A stretch of DNA of 64,000 nucleotides, from assembly GCA_963664405.1 (NCBI GenBank), contig OY761158.1, positions 4,896,001-4,960,000 on the forward strand. Reading direction: 5' to 3'. The stretch's first letter is position 1. The number at the start of each line of letters is the position of its first letter. The position numbers and the translations under genes are program-made. Below, one piece after another: positions 19,536 through 37,005 of the stretch. The notes under the pieces are model-generated. The model saw only the letters and a list, made by a program, of their open reading frames with translations. It ran no database searches and was not told where the DNA came from. Source of the DNA: Thermoanaerobaculia bacterium (GTDB lineage: Bacteria > Acidobacteriota > Thermoanaerobaculia > Multivoradales > Multivoraceae).

Positions 19536-20097
19536 GGACGAGCTCGCCGGCAAGATCGCGCTGATCGATCGTGGCGGCTGCGCGTTCACCGACAAGGTGG
19601 CGAACGCCCAGGCAGCGGGTGCCGTCGGCGCCATCATCGTAAACAACGCCGGCAACACAGTGTTCGACATGGCCGGCGACAATCCGGAGATCGTCATTCC
19701 GTCGGTGATGGTGGGTAGCCGAGATGGAAATCGCATTCGTCAGGAAGCCTGTGGCGAGAGCGCGGCCTATTTCTTGGGTGATCGCTTTCAGGTCACCGCA
19801 GCCTGGCGCGCCGCCAACGGGACCTCCGGCGAAGGCCAGGCTGTGGAGCTCACCGACCAGTCCGGCTACTTCTACTTCTTCAACGAGGAGAACATCGAGA
19901 TCACGATCAAGATGCTCGATGCCTGCGAGATTGGGAGCTTCAACAGCTTCTGGTTCTTCGGTGCGGCGATGACCGACGTCGAGGTGGCCCTGACGGTGGT
20001 CGACACCCAGAGCGGCCTGACCAAGACCTACTCGAACGAGCTCAAGACGCCCTTCGATCCGATCTTGGACACGTCGGCCTTCGCGACCTGTCCCTAG
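19534..20097 (+). pseudogene. 5'-truncated gene: partial PA (protease-associated) domain + lineage-typical C-terminal domain
   Basis: ELAGKIALIDRGGCAFTDKVANAQAAGAVGAIIVNN, then DRFQV..W...SGYFYFF..KMLDAC...DTSAFATCP. No N-terminus. Confidence 0.75.
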
Positions 20098-20441: not shown

Positions 20442-20550
20442 CAACGATGAATGGCCCGTAGTCGTGGCAGCCACGCTAAAATAGCGGGGTCGAGACCCAG
20501 AACGCTGCGGAATGATCGGGGAGCACTTCTTGTTCGAAAGAGCAGCTACC

Positions 20551-21183
20551 ATGCAACGACGTTGCCAACAGGCCCTTGTGGCGGCGCTGCTCACGGCCGT
20601 CCTCGGCTCCGTCCTGACCGGTTGTGCGAGCTCGACCACGCCGGGCGCTCCGTCGCCCAGCCCGGCCGCAGTGTCTCCACCTTCTCCGCCTACAGCGTCT
20701 CCACCGTCCCCTCCGAGCGGCGGTACTTCGCCCTCGACGGGTTCGGCCAAAGCGAAGGCGGGTCGGGCGCCCTCACCTTCGGGTGCTTCGACCGCGGATG
20801 AGCGCGTGGCGTCTCTCGACGGTGAGCTACGGGCATCGCTGGATGAGTTCGACGAGAAGCTGTTGAAAGACCAGAAGGTGCAGGCCGAGCAGCGTGAGGC
20901 CGCCGCCGCTGGAGCAGGGCTAGGGGGTAGCGGCTTCGAGGCGGGTTCCACCGCGGCCGGAGCCGGCGGTGCGGCCGGACTTTCTTCGGCGCCCGAGCTC
21001 GACGGGGCTACCCGCGAAGCGCGCACTCCCGAGAATGTCGGTGATGGTCATGACGACGACGTGGTCGCTCGCCAGCTCAGGGAGGCCGCCCAGCGCGAAC
21101 AGAACCCGGGACTCCGAGAGAAGATCTGGGAAGAATATCGACAGTACAAGGCGGCTACCACGAAGTCGCGCAAAGAAGCCTGA
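20551..21183 (+). CDS. Putative lipoprotein, Pro/Ser-rich (operon gene 1)
   Basis: Lipobox VLTGC; low-complexity linker; helical C-terminal DDDVVARQLREAA..E..P.LREKIWEEYRQYK. Confidence 0.75.
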   Translation: MQRRCQQALVAALLTAVLGSVLTGCASSTTPGAPSPSPAAVSPPSPPTASPPSPPSGGTSPSTGSAKAKAGRAPSPSGASTADERVASLDGELRASLDEFDEKLLKDQKVQAEQREAAAAGAGLGGSGFEAGSTAAGAGGAAGLSSAPELDGATREARTPENVGDGHDDDVVARQLREAAQREQNPGLREKIWEEYRQYKAATTKSRKEA

Positions 21184-21194
21184 GTACCTTCGTT

Positions 21195-22415
21195 ATGCGT
21201 CGACAGCGTCTCGCTCTTCTTTCCGCTCTTCTTCTCGTGGCCAGCGCCGCCTGGGGAGCCGCCGACAAGGACCTCTTCGTCGAGGCGATACAGGCCTCTT
21301 TCGAGGTGCCTGAAGATCAGCTTCTCGACGTGGGTGTTCGCATCCTTTCGCCGGGTCTTCCCGAGGACGACCCGGGGGCCAAGGAAGACAAGGGTGTTTT
21401 CGAGGATCTCCGAAAATCCGAGTCCCGCTTCATTCCCTTCCACCTCGCCGATACTTTGCAGTCGACCGGGCATTGGGGAGCGGTTCGGGTCATTCCTGAC
21501 GGACTTCGCAGCGTTGACGTCCTGATCAGCGGCGAGATCCTTGCCTCGAACGGCCGTGAGCTTCTCGTTCGCCTACGCGCCGAGGACGCGACGGGCCGAA
21601 AGTGGTTCGAGCGCAAATATCAAGACATCGCTTCGTCCGCGGACTACCGCGACGATGCGGCGGCGGGCGGCGAGCCTCATCAGACCCTCTACAACCAGTT
21701 CGCCAATGACCTCCTCGTCGCCCGCGGCGGGATCAAGCCGGATCAGCTCCGGGAGATCCACACCGTGTCGCGGCTGCGTTTCGCCGCCGACCTGGCGCCG
21801 GACCCTTTCGCCGGATATCTCGAGATCAACAGGAAGGGGCGCGTAAAGGTTGTTCACGTGCCCGCCCAGGACGATCCGATGATGGCTCGCGTCGACGAGA
21901 TTCGAGAGCGCGATCACATGCTGGTGGATGCACTCAACGAGTACTACGCAACCTTCTACTCGCAGATGGACCGCCCCTACGATGAATGGCGCTCGTTCAG
22001 CTACGACGAGGAAATGACCATGCGAAAGCTCCGTCACCAGGCACGGATGCAGAAGCTGATCGGACTGGCGGCGATTCTTGGCGCCGCTGTTGCGCCAGGC
22101 AACAGCACGGCCGCTTCGGCTGGGCGAACCACCGCCGCTGTTGTGGGCTCCATGGTCCTGAGTAATGGCATGTCGACGAGCCCCGAGGTGAAGATGCACA
22201 TCGAGGCGATCCGCGAGCTGGCGGGCTCGTTCGACCAGGAGATGACACCCCTTCTCGTCGAAGTCGACGGCCAGACACTGAAGCTCTCGGGCTCGGCCGA
22301 GTCTCAGTTCGAGGAATGGCGCGAGCTGCTGCGAAAGCTGTTCGCCGCCGAAACCGGAGTCGAAGTCGATGCGAACACCGGGGAGCCGATCGCTGGAACC
22401 AGTGACGGAGTCTGA
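21195..22415 (+). CDS. Secreted/envelope hypothetical protein (operon gene 2)
   Basis: Signal peptide; hydrophobic Gly/Ala hairpin near residues 290-325; 11 bp from the previous gene. Confidence 0.85.
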   Translation: MRRQRLALLSALLLVASAAWGAADKDLFVEAIQASFEVPEDQLLDVGVRILSPGLPEDDPGAKEDKGVFEDLRKSESRFIPFHLADTLQSTGHWGAVRVIPDGLRSVDVLISGEILASNGRELLVRLRAEDATGRKWFERKYQDIASSADYRDDAAAGGEPHQTLYNQFANDLLVARGGIKPDQLREIHTVSRLRFAADLAPDPFAGYLEINRKGRVKVVHVPAQDDPMMARVDEIRERDHMLVDALNEYYATFYSQMDRPYDEWRSFSYDEEMTMRKLRHQARMQKLIGLAAILGAAVAPGNSTAASAGRTTAAVVGSMVLSNGMSTSPEVKMHIEAIRELAGSFDQEMTPLLVEVDGQTLKLSGSAESQFEEWRELLRKLFAAETGVEVDANTGEPIAGTSDGV

Positions 22416-24300
22416 GCCCGGCGAGCTGAGAGTCGGCGGCGTTCTCGGCGAGCGCTTCAGGCTGGTGCGGCGTCTCGGCTCGAGCGTCATGGCCGAGGTC
22501 TGGGTCGTCGCGGACACGGCCGGCGATCGCGAGCTGGTGGCAAAGATCGTCGGACCTGGATCCGCCGCGGGGAGCCTCGAGCTTCTCGAACGGGAACATC
22601 GGTTGCAAAGTAGGTTCGACCATCCCCATGTGCTCGCTGTCGAGGGCTTCCAGCCCAGCTCCCAGTACACGATTCTGACCTTCCTCTACCTCGAAGGTGG
22701 CGATCTCAGGAGCCTCCGCGGCGCGGAGCCGCAACGTGTCGTAGAGCGCGTGCTGCCGATCGTTGAAGCGTTGGAGGTACTCCACGCCGGCGGAGTCATT
22801 CATCGCGACCTCAAGCCGGAGAACATTCTCCTCGACGCGGCCGGCACCCCCTACCTCTCGGACTTCGGAATCGCGGGTGAGGTCACGCCGGCTGAGGGCG
22901 AGCGAGAGATTCGAGCGGGTGGCTCCCGCGCCTACGCCAGCCCGCAGCAGCTCGCCGGCGAGCCCTCTCTCCCGAGCGACGATCTCTTTGCTCTCGGAGC
23001 CCTCCTCTACGAGCTCCTTTCAGGCGAGCTGCCCTTCGGTTCCGGCTCTTTCGACGAGCGCTCGCAGGAGCTCGATCCGCTTCCCGGAGCGGCGCGGGCG
23101 CTGCACCCTCTGGTCGCTTCACTGCTGTCACCTGCTCGGATGAATCGACCGGTGTCGGCGACCGTCGTCGCCGAGGAGCTTCGTCTCTACCTGGAAAGTG
23201 TGCCGGCGGCTGCCGCGAAACCGGCGGCCGCGCAGCCGGCGGCCCCGTTTCCGGTGAGTCGTGTTCGGCCGACTGGAGGACGAGGGAAGCGAGGGCTCGT
23301 CGGGGCAGCCCTTGTTCTTCTCGTTGGAGCTACCGCGGTCGTCTTTCTGGTGCTCCCGGATTGGGCGGCACGGAGACCAGAGCCAACATTGAGCGCGGCT
23401 TCATCCGCGCCAGGGGTAGCCGCCGGGGATACCGGGATCTCGGCCGCTTCCGAGCCAGCGACGGCGGTCGAGGAGATCGCTGCGCAAGAACCTCCGTCGG
23501 CTCCGCGCGAGGCCTCCGCGGTCCCGGCATCTCCGCGTCCCCGAGACACGCGCTGGATCGAGCCGCCGTCGCGTGTCGAGCGCGGAGCGCCACCCGCCGA
23601 TCCCTTTAGAGATGCCATGTCTGAAGGGCACGAGGCACTCTCGGCGGAGGAGTGGGGTCGCGCCAAAGCAGCGTTCGAAAGTGCTCGATCGCTCGACAGA
23701 AGCTCTTCCGCCGCCGCGGACGGGCTGCGCCGGGCGCAAGCAGGCGCTCAGGAGGAAGAGCTTCAGGTGTTGTCGCAGAGGGCCCTCGAAGCCGAGCGCG
23801 GGGAGGAGTGGCGAGCAGCCGCGGCAGCCTATGAGGCGGCGCTGGCGCTCGATCCGTCGGTTCGCTTTGCGCAGGAAGGTCGACGGCGATCGATGAGAAG
23901 AGCAGAGGTCGACGACGCTTTCCGCCTCTACCTGGAACGACCCGACCGTCTCGCGGAGCCGGCCGTGGCGGCGGAGGCGAGTGCCACGCTCGACGAGGCC
24001 GACAACATCGAAGCCCTCGTCGGCACTCGGCTCGCCGGACAGCGCGAGGATCTGCGAGAGGCCCTTCTCAGCGCAAGTCACCCGGTGGTGGTGACGCTGC
24101 TTTCGGATCAGGAGACCGAAGTCACGGTGTATCGAGTCGGCACCCTCGGTAGCTTTGACACTCATACCCTCGAGCTGCGGCCCGGGAACTACACCGTCGT
24201 CGGAATGCGGCGCGGGTATCGCGATGTCCGTCACCGGCTCGTGGTCTCGGCGGAGGGGCCCCCACCGCCCTTACAAGTACGATGTGAGGAGAGACTGTGA
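22402..24300 (+). CDS. Membrane Hanks-type Ser/Thr kinase with extracytoplasmic TPR-like helices and a PEGA-like end (gene 3)
   Basis: VAK, IHRDLKPENIL, SDFGIA, YASPQQ, DLFALG; one TM; LELRPGNYTVVG..RGYRD. GTG start overlaps the upstream gene. Confidence 0.9.
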   Translation: MTESEPGELRVGGVLGERFRLVRRLGSSVMAEVWVVADTAGDRELVAKIVGPGSAAGSLELLEREHRLQSRFDHPHVLAVEGFQPSSQYTILTFLYLEGGDLRSLRGAEPQRVVERVLPIVEALEVLHAGGVIHRDLKPENILLDAAGTPYLSDFGIAGEVTPAEGEREIRAGGSRAYASPQQLAGEPSLPSDDLFALGALLYELLSGELPFGSGSFDERSQELDPLPGAARALHPLVASLLSPARMNRPVSATVVAEELRLYLESVPAAAAKPAAAQPAAPFPVSRVRPTGGRGKRGLVGAALVLLVGATAVVFLVLPDWAARRPEPTLSAASSAPGVAAGDTGISAASEPATAVEEIAAQEPPSAPREASAVPASPRPRDTRWIEPPSRVERGAPPADPFRDAMSEGHEALSAEEWGRAKAAFESARSLDRSSSAAADGLRRAQAGAQEEELQVLSQRALEAERGEEWRAAAAAYEAALALDPSVRFAQEGRRRSMRRAEVDDAFRLYLERPDRLAEPAVAAEASATLDEADNIEALVGTRLAGQREDLREALLSASHPVVVTLLSDQETEVTVYRVGTLGSFDTHTLELRPGNYTVVGMRRGYRDVRHRLVVSAEGPPPPLQVRCEERL

Positions 24301-26441
24301 GCGAGAAGCGCCCTGGCACCGAGCCGCCGCGGCTGGTCGACTCTCCGGAGGTGCACCCTCACAGCGAGCCCGCGTCTCCCATTGAGGTGGCGGCTGCTAT
24401 CGAGCCGGCGACTCCCATTGAGCCGGTGGCATTCAAGCCTAAGCGGCTCGAGGCCGGGTCGGGGCGCAGAGTGTTGCCGACCGCACCTCAGGCCGGGATA
24501 CTGGCTCTCGTGCTTCTCCTGGCACTGGTTGCCTTTGTCTTCTTCACCGCGGTGCCGGTCGAGATCGTGGTCTCTCCCGAGCCCGAGCGCCTGGCGCTGT
24601 CGGGTACCCTGCCCCTGCCGTCGGTCGGTGGCCGGCGTCTCGTGCGCACCGGTCTGCAGGTGATCGAAGCCGAGAAGGCCGGCTATCAGAAGCTCGAACA
24701 GAGCTTCGATGTGGGTCGTGGGAGCGGCCAGTCTTTCCGTTTCGAGCTCGAGAAGCTCGGTGGTGTTCTCGATCTCGAGCTGCAGCCCGCCGACGCTCAG
24801 GTCGAGATCGATGGGGCCGCGATCACTAACCTCGGCGACATTCAGCTGACGCCGGGGGAGCATCGGATCCGAGTCTCTGCCGAGAGGTATCGCGACTTTG
24901 ACCAGAGCGTGAGTATCGAGGGTCTGGGAACGACGACGCCTCTCGCCGTGACACTGGAACCGGCGTGGGCGAGCCTCTCCTTCACCAGCACTCCATCGAG
25001 CGAGTTGCTGCTCGACGGTCGCTCGCTGGGTCGTACTCCGACGACGGTCGAGATCCTCGAGGGTACGCACGATGTCGAGATGCGGGCCTCGCGCTTTCGG
25101 ACTGAGCGGCGTCGGATCGAGGTACGAGCCGGTGAAGATCGGTCGCTTCCGGAGGTGATTCTCGAGCCTGCCGTGGCCCGTCTTCGGGTGGAGAGCGTAC
25201 CGCCGGGTGCCACGGTTCTGATCGACGGCGAGTTCCGTGGCGAAGCGCCGCTGGATGTGGAAGTGGCTCCCGAGAGGGTCCACCAGGTGACGACTTCACT
25301 CGCCGGCTTTGCGCCCGTGCGAAGGGAGGTTTCGGTCGGGGCCGGGGAGGAGCACGACTTGCGCTTGGAGCTGAGCGCGGAGCTCGGTGAGATCCGCCTC
25401 GCAGTCGAGCCCGCCGACGCGACCCTGTGGATCGACGGAGAGGCCTACGGCCCGGCGACGGGTACGCTGCGTCTCCCGGTCGTACCCCTGGCCATCGCCG
25501 TGCGCAAGGACGGCTATGAGACCTACCGCACGACGCTCATCCCGACTCCCGGTATCGAGCAGGTGCTGCAGCTAAGTCTCACCAGCATCGCTGAGATCCG
25601 CGCTGCCGAGACCCCGCCCCGAGTCGAGAGTCCGTTGGGCCAGGACCTGGTGCTCATCGGCACCGGGCGGCTGACTCTAGGAGCGTCTCGACGCGAGCCG
25701 GGTCGGCGCTCCAATGAGACTCTGCACACCGTGGAGCTGACTCGGCCTTTCTATATCTCTGCGCACGAGGTCACCAACGAGGAGTTTCGCGAGTTTCGCG
25801 AAGAGCATCGCTCCGGCGCCGCCGGCGAAGTCAATCTGGAAGGTGACAACAAGCCCGTTGTACGGGTGACTTGGGAGGACGCTATCTTCTATTGCAACTG
25901 GCTGAGCGAGCGCGAGGGATTGCCTGCGGCCTATGAGCGCCGCGACGGAAGGTGGGTGGGCTCTTCGCCGATGACTACCGGCTATCGCCTGCCGAGCGAA
26001 TCGGAGTGGGCCTGGGTAGCGCGTTACCCCGACGCTAAGGACGCGCTCAAGTACCCGTGGGGCGCCAGCATGCCGATTCAGCCGAAATCCGGCAACTACG
26101 CCGATCGATCGACGGGCGCTCTGGTGTCGGGCTCGCGCAGCGGTTACAACGATGGCTTCCCGGCGACCTCGCCGGTGGGTAAGTTTCCGCCGAATCCGTT
26201 GGGTATCTACGACCTCGGTGGCAACGTCGCCGAGTGGGTTCATGATGCCTACTTCATCTACCCTTCCGGCGCCGAAGAGGTTCTGACCGATCCGCTTGGG
26301 CTTGAGGGGGGCGAGCTTCACACGATTCGAGGCTCGAGCTGGATGCACTACAGCGTTTCCGATCTTCGGCTGGCTCACCGCGACTACGGTAGAGACGGTC
26401 GGCCGGATCTCGGTTTCCGCATCGCGAGATACGCTCGTTAG
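24297..26441 (+). CDS. TM-anchored multi-PEGA + FGE-sulfatase (SUMF1)-fold protein (gene 4)
   Basis: GTGA overlap; repeated S.P.GA.V.IDG PEGA units; HEVTN, PVVRVTWEDA..YCNWLS, YRLPSESEW, NPLGIYDLGGNVAEW and LGFRIAR. Confidence 0.9.
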   Translation: MSEKRPGTEPPRLVDSPEVHPHSEPASPIEVAAAIEPATPIEPVAFKPKRLEAGSGRRVLPTAPQAGILALVLLLALVAFVFFTAVPVEIVVSPEPERLALSGTLPLPSVGGRRLVRTGLQVIEAEKAGYQKLEQSFDVGRGSGQSFRFELEKLGGVLDLELQPADAQVEIDGAAITNLGDIQLTPGEHRIRVSAERYRDFDQSVSIEGLGTTTPLAVTLEPAWASLSFTSTPSSELLLDGRSLGRTPTTVEILEGTHDVEMRASRFRTERRRIEVRAGEDRSLPEVILEPAVARLRVESVPPGATVLIDGEFRGEAPLDVEVAPERVHQVTTSLAGFAPVRREVSVGAGEEHDLRLELSAELGEIRLAVEPADATLWIDGEAYGPATGTLRLPVVPLAIAVRKDGYETYRTTLIPTPGIEQVLQLSLTSIAEIRAAETPPRVESPLGQDLVLIGTGRLTLGASRREPGRRSNETLHTVELTRPFYISAHEVTNEEFREFREEHRSGAAGEVNLEGDNKPVVRVTWEDAIFYCNWLSEREGLPAAYERRDGRWVGSSPMTTGYRLPSESEWAWVARYPDAKDALKYPWGASMPIQPKSGNYADRSTGALVSGSRSGYNDGFPATSPVGKFPPNPLGIYDLGGNVAEWVHDAYFIYPSGAEEVLTDPLGLEGGELHTIRGSSWMHYSVSDLRLAHRDYGRDGRPDLGFRIARYAR

Positions 26442-26693: not shown

Positions 26694-27500
26694 ATGCCTG
26701 CAATGCGGCGCACCGGATCGTCCGAGTTCTTGTACCAGCTGGTGACCTTGTTTCTGGCCGTCATCGTGGTTCATGCGCTCTACGTGCTCGTCGTACGACC
26801 CCAGGCCGCCGCTGTGCTTGCCGAGCAGCATGCACAGATGCAGGTGGACCCGACCTATGTCCAGGAGCGGTCGGCGATGGTGGTCATCCGCGATTTCGAG
26901 CAGGAGGCATGCCTGATCTTGTTTCTGTGGGCGATGGCGATCATGGGGTACAAGGGAGTGCAGACGATCCGTGAGCGCCGATTCCTCGACCTGGATCTGG
27001 TCGGTATCGGCGACGGCACGCGTATTCTTGCCGAGGACGCGCGCCAGTATGCGCGTCAGATCCAGGCCTTGCCGATGGCTCAGCAGATGGCGCTGTTGCC
27101 ACGCTCGGTGCTGACGGCGCTCCTGCGTTTTTCTTCCACCGGCAACATCCAAGATGTGTCGACGACGGCTCACGCGCTTTGTGAAGCGGAGGCCGACCGT
27201 CTCGACTCCGAGTTGTCGATGGTGCGCTACATTGCGTGGGCGATCCCATCGATCGGGTTCATCGGCACAGTGCGGGGAATCGGCGACGCCCTCGGGCAGG
27301 CACATCAGGCGGTCGAAGGCGACATCGCCGGCGTCACCCAGAGTCTTGGCGTAGCTTTCAACTCGACCTTCATCGCTCTGCTCCTGTCCATCGTTCTGAT
27401 GTTCCTGCTTCATCAGCTGCAGCTCAACCAGGAGCGGCTGGTGCGCGAGAGCGAGACCTATCTCGACCAGGGCTTGATCCAGAACCTGCAGGCCTCTTGA
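26694..27500 (+). CDS. MotA/TolQ/ExbB proton-channel family protein (gene 6)
   Basis: IAWAIPSIGFIGTVRGI...LGVAFNSTFIAL channel signature; 4 TM. Confidence 0.9.
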   Translation: MPAMRRTGSSEFLYQLVTLFLAVIVVHALYVLVVRPQAAAVLAEQHAQMQVDPTYVQERSAMVVIRDFEQEACLILFLWAMAIMGYKGVQTIRERRFLDLDLVGIGDGTRILAEDARQYARQIQALPMAQQMALLPRSVLTALLRFSSTGNIQDVSTTAHALCEAEADRLDSELSMVRYIAWAIPSIGFIGTVRGIGDALGQAHQAVEGDIAGVTQSLGVAFNSTFIALLLSIVLMFLLHQLQLNQERLVRESETYLDQGLIQNLQAS

Positions 27501-27503
27501 TCG

Positions 27504-28892
27504 ATGAGTATTGCGATCGAGATCAACGACGCCGGCCTTTGCGCCGCGGCGGCGTCCAAGGGACTGCTCGATCTCCACAGCCCAGGGATCGCGCTTCTCG
27601 ACGGGGCGACGTTGAGGGTCGGTACTGTTGCCGCTGAGAGCGCGCGTCTGCGTCCTACTCATGTCCACGACCGTTTCTGGGCCGAGCTTGGTCACGAGCC
27701 ACTGTCGCGCCCCTTCCCCCGCGAGTGGAGCGCCGCCGACCTTGCCCACGCCCACCTCGCGGACTTCAGAGCCGGGCTCGGCGAGAGTGTCGACGATGGC
27801 GTGGTTCTTGTGCTGCCCGGATCTTTCTCAGCGCAGAGTGCCGCCCTCCTTCTCGGTATCGCACGAGCGGCGGGGCTACCTGTCGACGGTCTGGTCGATT
27901 CCGCGGTTGCCGCGCTGGCGCGGGGCCGCTCTGCGGGCTCCGGCCCCGTGCTCCATGTCGATTTGGAGCTCCACCGGGCGGTGGTGACGAGCCTCGTCCT
28001 CAGCGGCGGTGTCGTCAGGGAGCGGGTCGAATTGTTGGAGGGTCTGGGTCTGCGAGCCTGGCGCGACGCGGTTGCCCGGAGGATCGCCGAGCTCTTCGTT
28101 CGCGAGACGCGCTTCGACCCCTTGCACTCGGCCGAGAGTGAGCAGGCCCTGCATCTGCTTCTGCCGGCGGTTCTCGACGGCCTCACCAAGAGTGGCGCCA
28201 CCGATGTCGTCCTCCCCGCCGTCGGAGGAGAGCGGCGGCTACGAGTGACTCGAGAAGAGATAAGCCAGGCGCTCGAGCCCCTCACCCACGAGCTGGCGAC
28301 CGCCGTGTCGGTGCGCTTGGCCTCTCTCGGCAGCTCGGCATTGGCTGTTTCGCATCGAGTGGCCGCCCTACCGGGTGTCACCGGCCGCTTCGAGGAGGCG
28401 TCGACAGCGGTCGCAACCCGGCTGCCGGTTGGCGCGGCCGTTCTCGGTGCGGTCGAGCGCGCTGACGAGATCCGGTCGGGAAACGACGCCTTGCCCCTGG
28501 TAGTGCGCCTCGGATCGCAATCGAGCATGACGGCGTCGGACTCGCAAGGGGTTGGTGCGAGCGAGGGCCGTCGCGGGGCGACCCACGCTTTGATCGATGG
28601 AGTAGCCCATTCTCTTCTCAACGCGCCTCTGGCTGTGGGCGTCTCGGTTCCCTCGACGCTCCGCGGTGTGGATCTCGAAGGGGAGGTCGCGGGCATCTCG
28701 CGTCACCACTGCACTCTGGAGTACCTCGAAGGTCGCGCTACGGTGACCGACTGCAGCACCTGGGGAACCTTCTTGAACGACCAGAAGATCGATGCGCCGA
28801 CGGAGGTCCATGCCGGCGATCGAGTTCGCCTAGGGTCTCCAGGGGTGGAGATTCGGATGATTGCCTTGGCGGAGGAAGATGGCTCGGCGTAG
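27504..28892 (+). CDS. Degenerate Hsp70/actin-fold domain fused to a C-terminal FHA domain (gene 7)
   Basis: Colinear resemblance to the DnaK nucleotide-binding domain (see findings); FHA-like GISRHHC...TDCSTWGTFLN...GDRVRLG. Confidence 0.75.
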   Translation: MSIAIEINDAGLCAAAASKGLLDLHSPGIALLDGATLRVGTVAAESARLRPTHVHDRFWAELGHEPLSRPFPREWSAADLAHAHLADFRAGLGESVDDGVVLVLPGSFSAQSAALLLGIARAAGLPVDGLVDSAVAALARGRSAGSGPVLHVDLELHRAVVTSLVLSGGVVRERVELLEGLGLRAWRDAVARRIAELFVRETRFDPLHSAESEQALHLLLPAVLDGLTKSGATDVVLPAVGGERRLRVTREEISQALEPLTHELATAVSVRLASLGSSALAVSHRVAALPGVTGRFEEASTAVATRLPVGAAVLGAVERADEIRSGNDALPLVVRLGSQSSMTASDSQGVGASEGRRGATHALIDGVAHSLLNAPLAVGVSVPSTLRGVDLEGEVAGISRHHCTLEYLEGRATVTDCSTWGTFLNDQKIDAPTEVHAGDRVRLGSPGVEIRMIALAEEDGSA

Positions 28893-29970
28893 GCTCAGCG
28901 TTTTCTCGCTGTCGTTCCTCGACGCCATTACCTGCGGCTTCGGGGCGGTGATCCTCTTCTTCATGATCATCAACGGCTCGGTCGGCGTGCGCGCCGGGCG
29001 TCTCACCTACGACCTGCGAGCCGAGGTCGACCGGCTCGAGAAGGAGGTGCTCGAGGGGCACGAGAATCTCGTCGACGTACGCAACTCCAAGCGGCGGCAG
29101 GATCGCGAGCTGGTCCAAACCCAGGGACTCTCGCGCCGAGTCCTCTACGACCTGACCCGAGTCGAGCAGGAGCTCGCTGCCTCCGACAAAGACACTCTGG
29201 CGACGCGGGAGCACTTCAACCGGCTCAAGAGCGACATTCAGGCGGCCGAAGAGGCGAATCGGCGGCTTTCGGCCCTCTCTCCATCCGATTCGGTGCCCGG
29301 CGACCGAGTGCGAGCTTTTCTGGGTGAAGGGGATCGCCAGTACCTCACCGGGTTGAATCTGGGTGGCAATCGCATCCTCATCTTGGTCGACGCCTCCGCC
29401 AGCATGCTGGGTGAGAGGTTGGTCAACGTCTTGCGGCGGCGCAATCTCGATCCACGCGTTCGGCGCCAGGCTCGCAAATGGCAACAGGCGGTGGCTACGG
29501 TCGAGTGGCTGCTGACGCAGCTGCCCGAAGGTAGCGAGTTTCAGGTCTACTCGTTCAATACCGCGGCCGGGCCGGTGTTGGCTTCTAGTGGCGGCGGCTG
29601 GCTGCGGGCCGACGATCGATCCAGCCTCGACGGCTTGGTTACCGAGCTCAAGAGGTTGGTCCCCGACGGTGGTACGAGTCTTCACGCCGCCTTCTCGGCG
29701 GTAGCGCAAATGAAGCCGCGCCCCGACAATCTCATTCTGCTCACCGACGGCTTGCCGACCCAGGGCGAGAAAGTGGCGAAGGGAGGGACGGTCAGCGGCC
29801 GGCAGCGAATGAGGTTCTTCAACCGAGCTGTCGACGAGCTACCCAGGTCGATGCCGGTGAACACCATTCTCTTCCCGATGGAGGGCGATCCGCTGGCCTC
29901 GAGCGCCTATTGGCAGCTGGCGGCGGCGACACGAGGGTCCTATCTGACGCCGACGAGGGACTGGCCTTGA
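28879..29970 (+). CDS. TM + coiled-coil + vWA domain protein A (gene 8)
   Basis: FSLSFLDAITCGFGAVILFF TM; MIDAS DASAS, GGTS and LLTDG. Confidence 0.9.
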   Translation: MARRRLSVFSLSFLDAITCGFGAVILFFMIINGSVGVRAGRLTYDLRAEVDRLEKEVLEGHENLVDVRNSKRRQDRELVQTQGLSRRVLYDLTRVEQELAASDKDTLATREHFNRLKSDIQAAEEANRRLSALSPSDSVPGDRVRAFLGEGDRQYLTGLNLGGNRILILVDASASMLGERLVNVLRRRNLDPRVRRQARKWQQAVATVEWLLTQLPEGSEFQVYSFNTAAGPVLASSGGGWLRADDRSSLDGLVTELKRLVPDGGTSLHAAFSAVAQMKPRPDNLILLTDGLPTQGEKVAKGGTVSGRQRMRFFNRAVDELPRSMPVNTILFPMEGDPLASSAYWQLAAATRGSYLTPTRDWP

Positions 29971-30974
29971 AGAAGCGCCGCCGCGAAGCCGACCCGTTCT
30001 CGCTGTCGTTTCTCGACGCCATCTGCTGCGGCTTCGGTGCGATCATCATGCTCCTCGTGCTGACCAAGATCGGCGAGCCGGCGGCGATCGAGCAGGCGAG
30101 TGAAGATCTTCACGGGCTGGTGGCGCGTCTTGAAGAGGAGCTATTCGAGATCCGTGGTGAGACCCGCATCCTCAATCGGGATCTGGTGAGCAAAGAAGAG
30201 CAGATCTCCAAGGAGCGCGAGCGCATCGCCCGTCTCGAAGGCGACCTCAGCGAGATCCGCGGCGAGTTCGCGGCCAGCCGGGAGCTCAGCGAAGTCAGTG
30301 ACATCGTCGAAGGAGCGCTGGTGGCGGCGCAACAGGAGCTCAGCGAGGAGATGGAGCGTCTGCTCGGCCGCGATTTCCGCAGAGCCGAGACCGATACGAC
30401 GATCGGGGGCATTCCGGTCGACAGCGAGTACATCATCTTCATTGTCGATACCTCCGGCAGCATGCGTACCTTTGCGTGGCCGGCGATGATGGCCCGGATG
30501 GAAGAGATTCTCGAGGTCTATCCCGCGGTCAAGGGGATCCAGCTGATGAACGACATGGGCCAGTACCTGTTCACTTCCTACGCGGGGAAGTGGATTCCCG
30601 ACACGCCTGGGCGCAGGCGCATCCTTCTTCGGGAGCTGCGCAACTGGGCCGTGTTCTCGAACTCCAGCCCGGTCGAGGGCATCCAGCGGGCGATTCGCAC
30701 CTACGCCAACGGCCGCGACAAGATCTCGCTCTACGTGCTGGGAGACGAGTTCAGCGGCGGGTCCATCGACTCGGTCGTACGCGCGGTCGATCGCCTCAAT
30801 CGGGTGGACGCACGGGGTGAGCGCTTGGTTCGTATCCACGCTATCGGCTTTCCTGTCATGTTCGGGAATGTCGGAGTCAGCGCCAATACCGGGGTCCGCT
30901 TCGCCACCCTGATGCGGGTTCTATGCGAACGAAACGGCGGCTCGTTCGTCGGTTCGCGTAGCTTGATCCCGTGA
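29967..30974 (+). CDS. TM + coiled-coil + vWA domain protein B (gene 9)
   Basis: TTGA overlap; FSLSFLDAICCGFGAIIMLL TM; MIDAS DTSGS and VLGDE. Confidence 0.9.
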   Translation: MKKRRREADPFSLSFLDAICCGFGAIIMLLVLTKIGEPAAIEQASEDLHGLVARLEEELFEIRGETRILNRDLVSKEEQISKERERIARLEGDLSEIRGEFAASRELSEVSDIVEGALVAAQQELSEEMERLLGRDFRRAETDTTIGGIPVDSEYIIFIVDTSGSMRTFAWPAMMARMEEILEVYPAVKGIQLMNDMGQYLFTSYAGKWIPDTPGRRRILLRELRNWAVFSNSSPVEGIQRAIRTYANGRDKISLYVLGDEFSGGSIDSVVRAVDRLNRVDARGERLVRIHAIGFPVMFGNVGVSANTGVRFATLMRVLCERNGGSFVGSRSLIP

Positions 30975-31203: not shown

Positions 31204-32044
31204 ATGCGACACCTCTATGTTTCGGGACCTGGACGGCACGCTTCTCGGCAGCGACTGCACGCTCTCCAGTCGTTCGCGACGCTTGCTCAACCAGACCCTC
31301 GACCAAGGTGCGCTGATCACGGTCGCGAGTGCACGGAGCATCCATTCGCTGAAGCCTCTGCTGCCCGGGCTGCGCCTGAGGCTCCCGGTCATCGAGTTCA
31401 ATGGCGCCTTCATCAGCGATTTCGAGACAGGTCGCCATGAAGTCGTGCATGGGCTCGAGCCGAGCGTCGCTGAGAAGGCGTTCGAGTTTCTGGCAGCCGA
31501 GACGGTCGTGCCAATGGTGAGTAGCTACGACGGAGAAAGGGACTCGGTCTACTATGGCGACCCTCCCAACGACGGAACGAGCACCTATCTGAACGGTCGC
31601 TTCGAGGCTGGGGATCCTCGGATGCAGCCGGCAGGCGACCCCGGACGACATCTCGACGAACAAGTCGTTTGTCTCACGGTGATTGACCATCGCGAGCGCC
31701 TGGAGAGCTTGGTCCCGAGAATCAGGGAGCGCTTCCGAGGCCAGGTTCAGATGCACTGTTTCCCGGATCTCTATCAACCGCCGTGGTGGTGGCTCACCCT
31801 CCACTCGCCGCGGGCGACCAAGGCGGCTGCGATCTCCGACCTGTTGAAGAGATGCAGCCTCGAGGCCGCCGCGCTGGTGGCGTTCGGCGATCAGAGCAAC
31901 GACCTCAGCATGTTCGAGATCGCCGGGCTCAGCGTGGCGGTCGAGAACGCGATCGACGAGGTGAAGGCTCGGGCGCACCACGTCATCGGGTCCAACGACG
32001 ACGACAGCGTTGCCCGCTACATCGCGGAGCACGTGCGGATCTAG
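31204..32044 (+). CDS. Cof-type HAD-IIB hydrolase with a +1 frameshift at ~31225 (pseudogene or sequence error)
   Basis: ATG CGA CAC CTC TAT GTT TCG (G) GAC CTG GAC GGC ACG gives MRHLYVS-DLDGTL; ASAR, FNGA and FGDQSNDLSMF follow. Confidence 0.85.
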
Positions 32045-33456: not shown

Positions 33457-33846
33457 TTACGCGAGTTTCAAGAGGTCGGCCGGTGTGACGATTCGCACCG
33501 GACAGCGCGGAAAGTGCCGACGATTACCGGTGACCAACGCATCCCCGAGTCCCTCGATCGCGACCTCGAGGAAGGGCTGGTCGCTGGGGTCGGAGCAGCG
33601 AAGATCGAGAGGAGCAGCGACGATCCGTTCACCCGTCTCGCAGAGAAATCCCAGAAAGATGCGAATGCTGGCGGCATCGAAGCCGAATTTCGGTCTGGCC
33701 AGAACGGCCTCGTACTCGGCCAACATCCGATCGTCGTACAGGGCACGGAACGACTCTCTCAGCAGCGAATCGACGATTCGCCCCGGTGGCCCCTCCGAAC
33801 GGAGGAGACCCGACACGAGTGCGTTGGTGTCCAAGACCAGCCTCAC
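33457..33846 (-). CDS. PIN-domain toxin
   Basis: RLVLDTNALVSGLL, EY..VL.RPKF, DPSDQPFLEVA and LVTGN..HF. Confidence 0.9.
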   Translation of the reverse strand: MRLVLDTNALVSGLLRSEGPPGRIVDSLLRESFRALYDDRMLAEYEAVLARPKFGFDAASIRIFLGFLCETGERIVAAPLDLRCSDPSDQPFLEVAIEGLGDALVTGNRRHFPRCPVRIVTPADLLKLA

Positions 33847-34124
33847 GCGGGCTGGCCTGCGCGCGTCGCTCGGATCTCCTCGTCGATCTCTGCTTCGGAG
33901 AGCGCTGCGGCTCCGGACTGTCGCGCCTCCTGCCGCAGCAGCGAGACGGCCGCCGCCGAACGTGCCTGGCGGAGGGTGGAGATCTTGGCTTCGAAGTCAT
34001 CGTCCACGCTCAGAAGAATGCCCACCGGCTTTCCGTTCGAAGTGATTACGCCGGTTTCTTCCTCGAGCTCTTCGATCACCTGGGTGGTCTGATTGCGCAG
34101 CTCACGCATCGTGATGAACTTCAT
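33843..34124 (-). CDS. Phd/YefM-type antitoxin
   Basis: MKFITMRELRN...VITSNGKPVGIL; GTGA overlap with the PIN gene. Confidence 0.88.
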   Translation of the reverse strand: MKFITMRELRNQTTQVIEELEEETGVITSNGKPVGILLSVDDDFEAKISTLRQARSAAAVSLLRQEARQSGAAALSEAEIDEEIRATRAGQPA

Positions 34125-34155
34125 CGCCCTATTGTAGCGCAATTGTCGCGTAAGG

Positions 34156-36105: not shown

Positions 36106-37005
36106 ATGAATCGACTTCTATTCTTCGGTCTGCTGACGGTGCTCGCCACGGCGCCGGCAACTGCACAGAATCTCCTCCTCAATCCCGGCTTCGACACCGA
36201 CTTGTCGGATTGGGCCTCTGGTTCTCAAGGAGTCAGCTCCTGGGATCCTGCAGACGCTTCCGACTCGGACCAATCAGGCTCGGCCCGCCTCGAGACCTCC
36301 GCCGAGCCCGGCGTTACCGTCATGGACATTCACCAGTGCGTGAACGTGGGCTTCGACGACGACTTCGTCTTCGGCGCGCAGATCTTCAAGCCTCTCGACG
36401 AGGCTGTCACCGTCTTCGGCTCGGCTTCTTGGTATGCGAGCGCGGACTGTATCGATTTCCTGTCCAGTGAAACGGCCCTTTCGCTCTTCGCTTCGACGCC
36501 CGGAGACGGCAAGTGGCAGGGGGAGTTGGAGACCGTCTCTCGGCCCGAAGGTGCGATGAGCGTCCTCTTCCGCATGACATCCCGCAAGGAGACCGACACT
36601 CCGGTCGTCGCCTTCTTCGATGACCTCGTCTTCATGCCTGGAGTCGCCGATGCCTCGTGCATCAAGAATGCCAACACTCTCTGCCTGAATGAGGGACGTT
36701 TCGAGGTGACGGTCGACTGGCGGTCGGCCGGCGATCAGGGGATCGGCACCGCAATCGAGCTCACCGAGGACACCGGCTATTTCTGGTTCTTCAACTCTGC
36801 GAACGTAGAGCTGGTGGTAAAGGTGCTCGATGCCTGCGAAACGGGCTTCAATGCGTTTTGGGTCTTTGCCGCAGGTTTGACCGACGTCGAAGTCGATCTC
36901 GTCGTGAGAGACACGGAGGAGGACGTGACCAAGGTCTATCTCAACGATCAGGGCAATCCCTTCGAGCCGGTCCAAGACACAGCTGCCTTCAAGACCTGCT
37001 CTTGA
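36106..37005 (+). CDS. Secreted protein: CBM-like N-domain + lineage-typical C-terminal domain
   Basis: Signal peptide and NLLLNPGFD...W; then LCLNEGRFEVTVDW...DTGYFWFFNSANVELVVKVLDAC...FWVFAAGLTDVEV...PVQDTAAFKTCS. Confidence 0.85.
   Translation: MNRLLFFGLLTVLATAPATAQNLLLNPGFDTDLSDWASGSQGVSSWDPADASDSDQSGSARLETSAEPGVTVMDIHQCVNVGFDDDFVFGAQIFKPLDEAVTVFGSASWYASADCIDFLSSETALSLFASTPGDGKWQGELETVSRPEGAMSVLFRMTSRKETDTPVVAFFDDLVFMPGVADASCIKNANTLCLNEGRFEVTVDWRSAGDQGIGTAIELTEDTGYFWFFNSANVELVVKVLDACETGFNAFWVFAAGLTDVEVDLVVRDTEEDVTKVYLNDQGNPFEPVQDTAAFKTCS

Follow-up and report, generated by a model that had tools for sequence, protein, structure and literature searches.

The flagellar stator MotA-MotB is a 5:2 complex in which the Asp-bearing helix of the B subunit lies inside the A ring. 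GldL-GldM (PorL-PorM) is the motor of type IX secretion, and GldK (PorK) is an FGE-fold lipoprotein. In this study, we analysed two neighbouring genes for vWA proteins, vWA-A and vWA-B, in a 64,000-nucleotide stretch of the genome of a Thermoanaerobaculia bacterium (Acidobacteriota; GCA_963664405.1, contig OY761158.1, positions 4,896,001 to 4,960,000), which is called the window below. The proposed motor resembles the MotA-MotB stator: we consider it likely that vWA-A and vWA-B occupy the centre of an ion-driven motor of the 5:2 type as its two B-type subunits, together with a MotA/TolQ/ExbB-like ring encoded in the same operon.

The closest described proteins form the 'TPH-vWA' class, which was proposed in 'Origin and Evolution of Bacterial Periplasmic Force Transducers' (Mol Biol Evol 2025, msaf138; PMC12204202). 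The sections of this paper on which we draw concern vWA proteins with a transmembrane tether, whose genes are tightly associated with tolQ homologues, without tolR or exbD. These proteins have a TolR/ExbD-like trans-pore helix with a conserved Asp and come mostly as heterologous pairs, and when relatives were modelled with AlphaFold 3, their two Asp came to lie within the Thr ring of the pentamer (PMC12204202, section 8, Fig. 4). The window pair agrees with the class, as those sections characterise it, in the single Asp helix, the C-terminal vWA domain, the tolQ-like neighbour without tolR or exbD, the heterologous pairing, the absence of an SHLS/His motif and a largely proteobacterial distribution. 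It differs in its host, since those sections name Proteobacteria and Verrucomicrobia, whereas the present copy lies in an Acidobacteriota genome. The comparison supports the window pair as a further member of the predicted TPH-vWA class, matched to the Idiomarina loihiensis-seeded family by described features only. An earlier note on this DNA had called the system a distinct motor type; the architecture is supported, but the type is not new, because these sections had already predicted it in 2025 (PMC12204202).

In the main text of that paper the word 'kinase' is absent and the sole hit for 'FHA' is 'FhaC'; PEGA, FGE and Hsp70 were not searched there. A full-text literature search found no published description of the wider eight-gene module to which the pair belongs, and for the pair family the literature search turned up no phenotype or structure.

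Comparison with known motors and vWA proteins

The locus shares with ExbB-ExbD and TolQ-TolR a ring protein of family PF01618 with two conserved Thr, and a shaft topology with the Asp near the cytoplasmic end of the helix. However, the shaft proteins here have a coiled coil and a vWA head, they have no ExbD periplasmic domain, and no homology is detectable. In further contrast to Ton and Tol, we recognised no third protein resembling TonB or TolA among the operon products, and the shaft genes are two distant paralogues. Compared to MotA-MotB, the vWA pair is without the plug helix and without the OmpA-like peptidoglycan-binding domain.

GldLM/PorLM is alike in its long periplasmic shaft extension and in the FGE-sulfatase-fold protein encoded alongside. 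However, the match of the present protein to GldK is far below the cut-off, no other type IX gene was recognised, and the periplasmic part of the shaft is unrelated. Zorya ZorA-ZorB is also a MotAB-like motor that is patchy among genomes, and a weak ZorA match (E 0.0017) was found here, but no ZorB, ZorC or ZorD. BatA and BatB share the vWA head fold with the window pair; the genes for Bat proteins are not known to be linked to one of the MotA type. A known defence system was considered and rejected, as PADLOC gave only generic kinase families, the weak ZorA match and a weak coiled-coil match to LmuB.

Architecture of vWA-A and vWA-B

The ring gene and the two vWA genes of the window are as follows (aa, amino acids).

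26694..27500, plus strand: MotA/TolQ/ExbB-like channel subunit, 268 aa (PF01618; 51.4 bits, family cut-off 22.9)
28879..29970, plus strand: vWA-A, 363 aa, with a basic tail, an Asp-bearing transmembrane helix, a helical stalk, a linker and a vWA head
29967..30974, plus strand: vWA-B, 335 aa, with a basic tail, an Asp-bearing transmembrane helix, a coiled-coil stalk and a vWA head

The vWA-A gene starts with the ATG at 28879, with GGAGGA ahead of it, and ends at 29970. Its Asp15 is encoded by GAC at 28921-28923. The stalk spans residues ~32-132 (nucleotides 28972-29274) and the head residues 160-363 (nucleotides 29356-29967). The AlphaFold2 model of vWA-A (mean pLDDT 84.3) has one unbroken helix from residue 8 to 132; a disordered linker (133-151) and a confidently modelled alpha/beta domain (160-363) follow. 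The head matched the Pfam families VWA_2 and VWA_3, and Foldseek aligned it with solved vWA and integrin I domains at a probability of 1.00, with BatB (3ibs) among the matches. Its MIDAS motif DASAS comprises residues 171-175 (nucleotides 29389-29403). Across 40 vWA-A sequences, D171, S173, S175 and D290 do not vary, and the conservation of T266 is 90% or more; we take T266 and D290 to be metal ligands from the pattern.

Judging from the sequence, vWA-B most likely starts with the TTG at 29967, which overlaps the stop codon of vWA-A as TTGA. Read from this TTG, the protein has 335 aa, the same length as its nearest relative (P0271, 99% identical); the longest possible start, at 29910, is less likely. 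Asp17 is encoded by GAC at 30015-30017, and the motif DTSGS comprises residues 161-165 (nucleotides 30447-30461). Residues D161, T162, S163, S165 and D260 are invariant in 40 vWA-B sequences. Searched against PDB sequences, the vWA-B profile gave weak coiled-coil matches in the stalk region and integrin alpha-M at E 0.28.

We found that vWA-A and vWA-B are full-length paralogues. BLASTP aligned them over 179 residues with 28% identity (E 2e-13), and the profile-profile comparison extended over 321 columns with a probability of 99.8% (E 1.3e-29). The vWA domain of vWA-B is assigned from this profile match. Identity to the window protein is 44-61% within each type and 23-28% between the types. 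The earlier note had read a basic patch, an almost identical Asp helix, a stalk of ~100 aa and a MIDAS vWA head in both proteins, and the translations, the alignments and the vWA-A model bear this out. Both helix strings that it quoted, FSLSFLDAITCGFGAVILFF and FSLSFLDAICCGFGAIIMLL, are present in the translations and are identical at 15 of 20 positions.

Conservation of the intramembrane Asp

Invariance of the Asp among homologues had been named as a check on the motor role, and no homologue that includes the helix has lost the Asp. All 120 close vWA-A homologues have the helix motif together with the Asp. Among 150 vWA-A cluster representatives at 50% identity, 115 have the motif and 2 more keep the Asp with Ala in place of one Gly, which gives the Asp in 117/117 representatives covering the helix. 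The other 33 are without the helix part: some have an unrelated N-terminus, and the rest begin only within the helix or beyond it, in the stalk or the head. For vWA-B, the motif is present in 119 of 120 homologues, and the remaining one reads SYLD, so the Asp is kept in 120/120. Orthologues were also taken from genome loci, for which one genome per species was scanned; 601 loci with vWA-A relatives were found, and the best 80 of the 601 were compared. The Asp is present in 80/80 vWA-A and 77/77 vWA-B orthologues from these loci.

The invariant residues of the helix are F13, L14, D15, C19, G20, G22 and A23 in vWA-A, and F15, L16, D17, C21, G22 and G24 in vWA-B. Since the helix motif recurs in hundreds of homologues, it is more than a chance resemblance.

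A basic N-region followed by a hydrophobic stretch is also the layout of a signal peptide, and the N-termini could be cleaved, leaving vWA-A and vWA-B soluble in the periplasm or secreted. However, the hydrophobic stretch contains the invariant Asp and CGFG and is among the best conserved parts of the proteins, and the continuous helix of residues 8-132 in the AlphaFold2 model of vWA-A runs through it. The residues after the helix are variable, with no conserved cleavage motif in the homologues or in the locus orthologues. Because the invariant columns cluster in the helix and the residues beyond it vary, a cleaved signal peptide is a poor fit, and we regard this possibility, which the earlier note had raised against its own proposal, as highly improbable.

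Predicted pairing of vWA-A and vWA-B

To examine the pairing, a two-chain model of vWA-A and vWA-B was made from our own alignments, with 40 orthologues of each protein from the same loci, in three runs and with three controls. The ipSAE of the A:B model was 0.74, 0.74 and 0.75, and the best of the three controls reached 0.00. The ipSAE mark is reached by 116 of 157 solved complexes and by 2 of 215 mismatched pairs, rates that hold only roughly here because our own alignments were used. The runs had at least 50% of their contacts in common, and the partner pLDDT was 72. The named contacts are parallel and fall into three regions: residues 17-28 of A meet 19-30 of B in the transmembrane helices, 35-99 of A meet 41-101 of B in the stalk, and 331-362 of A meet 289-332 of B in the heads. 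In the stalk they are spaced by 3-4 residues. Both Asp lie outside the named A:B contacts, where a residue left unnamed by this method counts as uncertain. The heterodimer suggested in the earlier note is supported by this two-chain model, as a predicted A:B pair.

The motor could be real and its shaft nevertheless homodimeric (A2 or B2), which would give two alternative motors with different heads. The canonical shafts of MotB, ExbD and TolR are homodimers, and close relatives of a true partner also pass a complex model. However, vWA-A and vWA-B are adjacent in 80/80 loci, with a start-stop overlap in the window, and each of four proteobacterial genomes has exactly one vWA-A and one vWA-B. 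The difference between the A:B score and the controls, with its heptad-spaced contacts, also speaks against homodimers, as do the age of the paralogues and the conservation of each, seen in the higher identity within than between types. The constant co-occurrence, the single pair per genome in the four genomes and the old duplication favour an obligate heterodimer, and we consider a homodimeric shaft unlikely.

The MotA-like ring and the missing conventional shaft subunit

The residues T192 and T225, in the last two transmembrane helices of the MotA-like protein, do not vary among 39 orthologues. In an alignment with the ExbB/TolQ proteins of the host genome itself, they correspond to the conserved Thr. 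In the sections of the TPH-vWA paper used here, such Thr are described as lining the pore in TolQ/ExbB, where they form a ring around the B-subunit Asp (PMC12204202).

The host genome consists of one contig of 6.78 Mb. MotA_ExbB and ExbD were each matched three times in it, and every one of the ExbD genes adjoins one of the other two ExbB/TolQ genes. No MotB_plug match reached the cut-off anywhere in this genome. Since the ExbD genes adjoin other ExbB genes and no MotB_plug match exceeds the cut-off, the MotA-like gene of the operon is left without a conventional partner. The operon had been described as free of ExbD, TolR and MotB, and a Pfam scan of the operon confirmed this. The search of the whole genome with PF02472, at E values up to 1, did not match the vWA-A or vWA-B gene. 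Neither protein had an ExbD/TolR match in Pfam or NCBIfam, nor an OmpA-like peptidoglycan-binding domain or a plug domain in Pfam.

Two further observations concern the ring proteins of this genome. By eye, a second hydrophobic stretch can be seen close to the N-terminus of the MotA-like protein, at residues ~70-90 around EACLILFLWAMAIMGYK. The protein may have four membrane helices, as MotA, rather than three, as TolQ/ExbB. In another locus of the same genome (L001, G000:C1:3509790-3513146), a canonical ExbB gene precedes two ExbD genes that differ from each other (146 and 145 aa); this is thus another 'one ring gene, two shaft genes' locus.

We also considered that vWA-A and vWA-B might be membrane-anchored scaffold or adhesion proteins, like BatA/BatB, which stand outside the ring. 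The conserved Asp/CGFG helix would then serve dimerisation or contact with a further membrane protein encoded in the operon, and an unrecognised partner would work with the MotA-like protein. The lack of detectable ExbD homology and the presence of BatB among the Foldseek matches of the vWA-A head fit this explanation, and the present models cover the A:B pair, not pentamer insertion. However, an invariant charged residue in a transmembrane helix beside an orphan MotA/TolQ-like gene, found together in 67/67 loci, is what a B subunit requires. From a reading of the translations, which was not counted, no other single-pass protein of the operon was seen to have such a residue. The published AlphaFold 3 model of relatives, in the section cited above, also puts the helices in the pore (PMC12204202). 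Scaffold proteins outside the ring therefore appear to us quite improbable, somewhat more so than a homodimeric shaft.

Points against the motor assignment

Several points weigh against the assignment of the pair as B-type motor subunits. The assignment rests on sequence comparison and predicted models. The pairing score covers A:B alone, and close cousins of a true partner often pass as well; moreover, a two-chain model cannot show insertion into a pentamer.

Another point is the comparison with ExbD, which had been proposed for the N-terminal region and detected no homology. A 48-residue N-terminal profile of A and B (156 distinct sequences) was compared by hhalign with an ExbD alignment of 31 sequences from Acidobacteriota and the host genome; the probability was 3.7% over 8 columns, with the Asp unaligned. 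Because no homology is detectable, vWA-A and vWA-B are analogues or very remote relatives, and not recognisable members of ExbD, TolR or MotB. Since short transmembrane segments rarely score, the low value is no argument against an analogous role.

The last point is the second MIDAS loop, which reads S231-N-S233-S-P (SNSSP) in vWA-B as against GGT in vWA-A. Because SNSSP replaces GGT, the metal site of vWA-B may differ from that of vWA-A.

Conservation of an eight-gene module

The pair is the end of a conserved eight-gene module. The genes form a run on the plus strand of the window in which neighbours overlap or are tightly spaced, and their domains were assigned with Pfam and NCBIfam. Besides the three genes listed above, the module consists of the following.

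20512..21183, plus strand: predicted lipoprotein, 223 aa, the first gene of the module, with a lipobox (LTGC), a linker rich in Pro and Ser, and a helical C-terminal region that is conserved
21195..22415, plus strand: secreted envelope protein, 406 aa, with a signal peptide here
22369..24300, plus strand: membrane Ser/Thr kinase, 643 aa (Pkinase 1.4e-29), with one transmembrane segment and a periplasmic C-terminal region
24297..26441, plus strand: periplasmic protein with a membrane anchor, 714 aa, in which an FGE-sulfatase-like domain (GldK/PorK fold family) comes after four PEGA domains
27504..28892, plus strand: cytoplasmic Hsp70-like/FHA protein, 462 aa, with residues ~1-340 resembling an Hsp70 nucleotide-binding domain and a C-terminal FHA domain (3.1e-12)

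The Pfam search gave no family for the 223-aa lipoprotein. The 406-aa envelope protein had neither a Pfam family nor a PDB sequence match; its homologues have lipobox-type N-termini, with a lipobox in most of the proteobacterial ones. The C-terminal region of the kinase gave nothing useful against PDB sequences, the single match being at E 0.31. In the 714-aa protein, Pfam matched PEGA in 4 stretches (4.2e-39) and FGE-sulfatase (9.8e-42), and the NCBIfam GldK match (1.1e-27) was below the family cut-off, with 97 bits against 350. The Hsp70-like/FHA protein was modelled by AlphaFold2 with a pLDDT of 91.8, and Foldseek matched its Hsp70-like part to DnaK/Hsp70 nucleotide-binding domains at a probability of 1.00 and a target TM-score of 0.70-0.79. 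A HAD hydrolase gene 3' of vWA-B (31217-32044) is not conserved across the related loci.

The 80 compared loci span Gammaproteobacteria (Halieaceae, Microbulbifer, Woeseiaceae, Pseudomonadales), Desulfobacterales, Desulfuromonadales, Myxococcales and Vicinamibacteria. In all of them (80/80), vWA-B lies within 200 bp after vWA-A. The counts for the other genes include only loci with enough flank, which was at least 2400 bp for the MotA-like gene. The MotA-like gene lies upstream of the pair on the same strand in 67/67 loci. A homologue of the PEGA/FGE-like protein is present in 59/59 loci, and the C-terminal periplasmic part of the kinase gene (residues ~413-643) in 53/53. Homologues of the Hsp70-like/FHA gene occur in 70/72 loci and of the 406-aa envelope protein in 50/52, and the upstream lipoprotein has a homologue directly 5' of the 406-aa gene in 48/51.

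Among the compared loci (L010-L089), the kinase domain itself is kept in only 15 of those assessed. A Pfam-recognisable FHA domain was found in 12 of these 15 kinase-domain loci. There was no FHA hit in any of the 36 scanned loci that have a complete homologous gene but no kinase-domain match on the operon strand; these 36 come from 39 loci without the kinase domain, of which two others have no gene for the FHA protein and one was left out because its coordinates were in error. Unlike the kinase and FHA domains, the Hsp70-like part of the FHA gene and the periplasmic part of the kinase gene are kept throughout. The presence of FHA in 12/15 kinase loci against 0/36 without the kinase domain supports a direct coupling of kinase and FHA. 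Because the loci are interrelated and the counts are not independent, this association is suggestive and not statistical.

Some loci have additional genes. In proteobacterial loci, two lipoprotein genes follow 3' of vWA-B, in 44/80 and 36/80 loci, respectively (L010:11111-11842 and L010:11847-12539). In the 13 loci of the Woeseiaceae type, an OmpA-like protein with a coiled coil is encoded after vWA-B (L038:11235-11948). Neither the extra proteobacterial lipoprotein genes nor the OmpA-like gene had a match in the window.

Proposed mechanism of the motor

For the preferred reading, a motor with a heterodimeric vWA shaft, we propose the following mechanism, in which the entry of the helices into the pentamer, the coupling to ions, the ligand gripped and the resulting output are what we infer. 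Both chains would be bitopic in the inner membrane, their N-termini cytoplasmic and the remainder periplasmic, and the ring is presumed to be a pentamer of the MotA-like protein, encoded two genes upstream. Each chain would contribute one helix, whose invariant Asp near the cytoplasmic end would accept the ion while facing Thr192 and Thr225 of the ring. The chains would pair in parallel through their transmembrane helices, the stalk of ~100 residues (~15 nm as a helix) and the vWA heads. Far out in the periplasm, the two MIDAS heads may grip an acidic residue of a partner, for which the best candidates are the co-conserved PEGA/FGE-like protein and the two lipoprotein-like proteins of the operon.

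Ion flow would turn the ring and the shaft against each other, and two kinds of output can be envisaged. As in Ton, Tol and GldLM, the shaft may do its work on the periplasmic side. Alternatively, the heads may anchor the shaft, and the ring may act on the Hsp70-like/FHA protein, as in flagellar stators and Zorya.

A more extended proposal, which we regard as tentative and on balance doubtful, is that the pair serves as shaft in an envelope motor that is encoded by the eight genes and gated by phosphorylation. Through its conserved periplasmic domain, the kinase would sense an envelope signal, and it would then make a phospho-Thr mark. This mark would be read by the FHA domain of the Hsp70-like protein docked at the ring, which would act as a clutch. 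The heads would grip the PEGA/FGE-like or the lipoprotein-like proteins, and so pull on, or anchor to, the wall or the outer membrane.

If the motor with a vWA shaft is confirmed, it would add another kind of output for 5:2 rotary motors, beside flagellar stators, Ton, Tol, gliding/type IX secretion and Zorya, driven through a shaft of two different proteins that ends in integrin-like, metal-dependent adhesion heads.

Distribution

The family is large and broadly spread: more than 6400 vWA-A homologues were found at 90% clustering, with 1462 cluster representatives at 50% identity. Carriers made up 5 of 201 genomes sampled from Acidobacteriota, a count that includes the host genome, leaves out two sampled genomes of the same family and has the unpublished genome G024 among its negatives. 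In one gammaproteobacterial order, 27 of 151 sampled genomes were carriers. The system is patchy and single-copy. Since the carriers include culturable hosts (Microbulbifer, Congregibacter and Pseudohalioglobus), the motor question is directly testable.

Other features of the window

Two open reading frames on the plus strand, at 19783-20091 and 36697-36999, have a common C-terminal stretch of ~100 residues (55% identity, E 8e-39) with Cys at the end. No Pfam family was found for this stretch, and the first open reading frame also has a PA domain. The common stretch may be an undescribed C-terminal domain of secreted proteins. On the minus strand, we found a type II toxin-antitoxin pair (33457-33846 and 33843-34142), in which a PIN_3 toxin (1.8e-20) overlaps a Phd/YefM antitoxin (5.1e-11).

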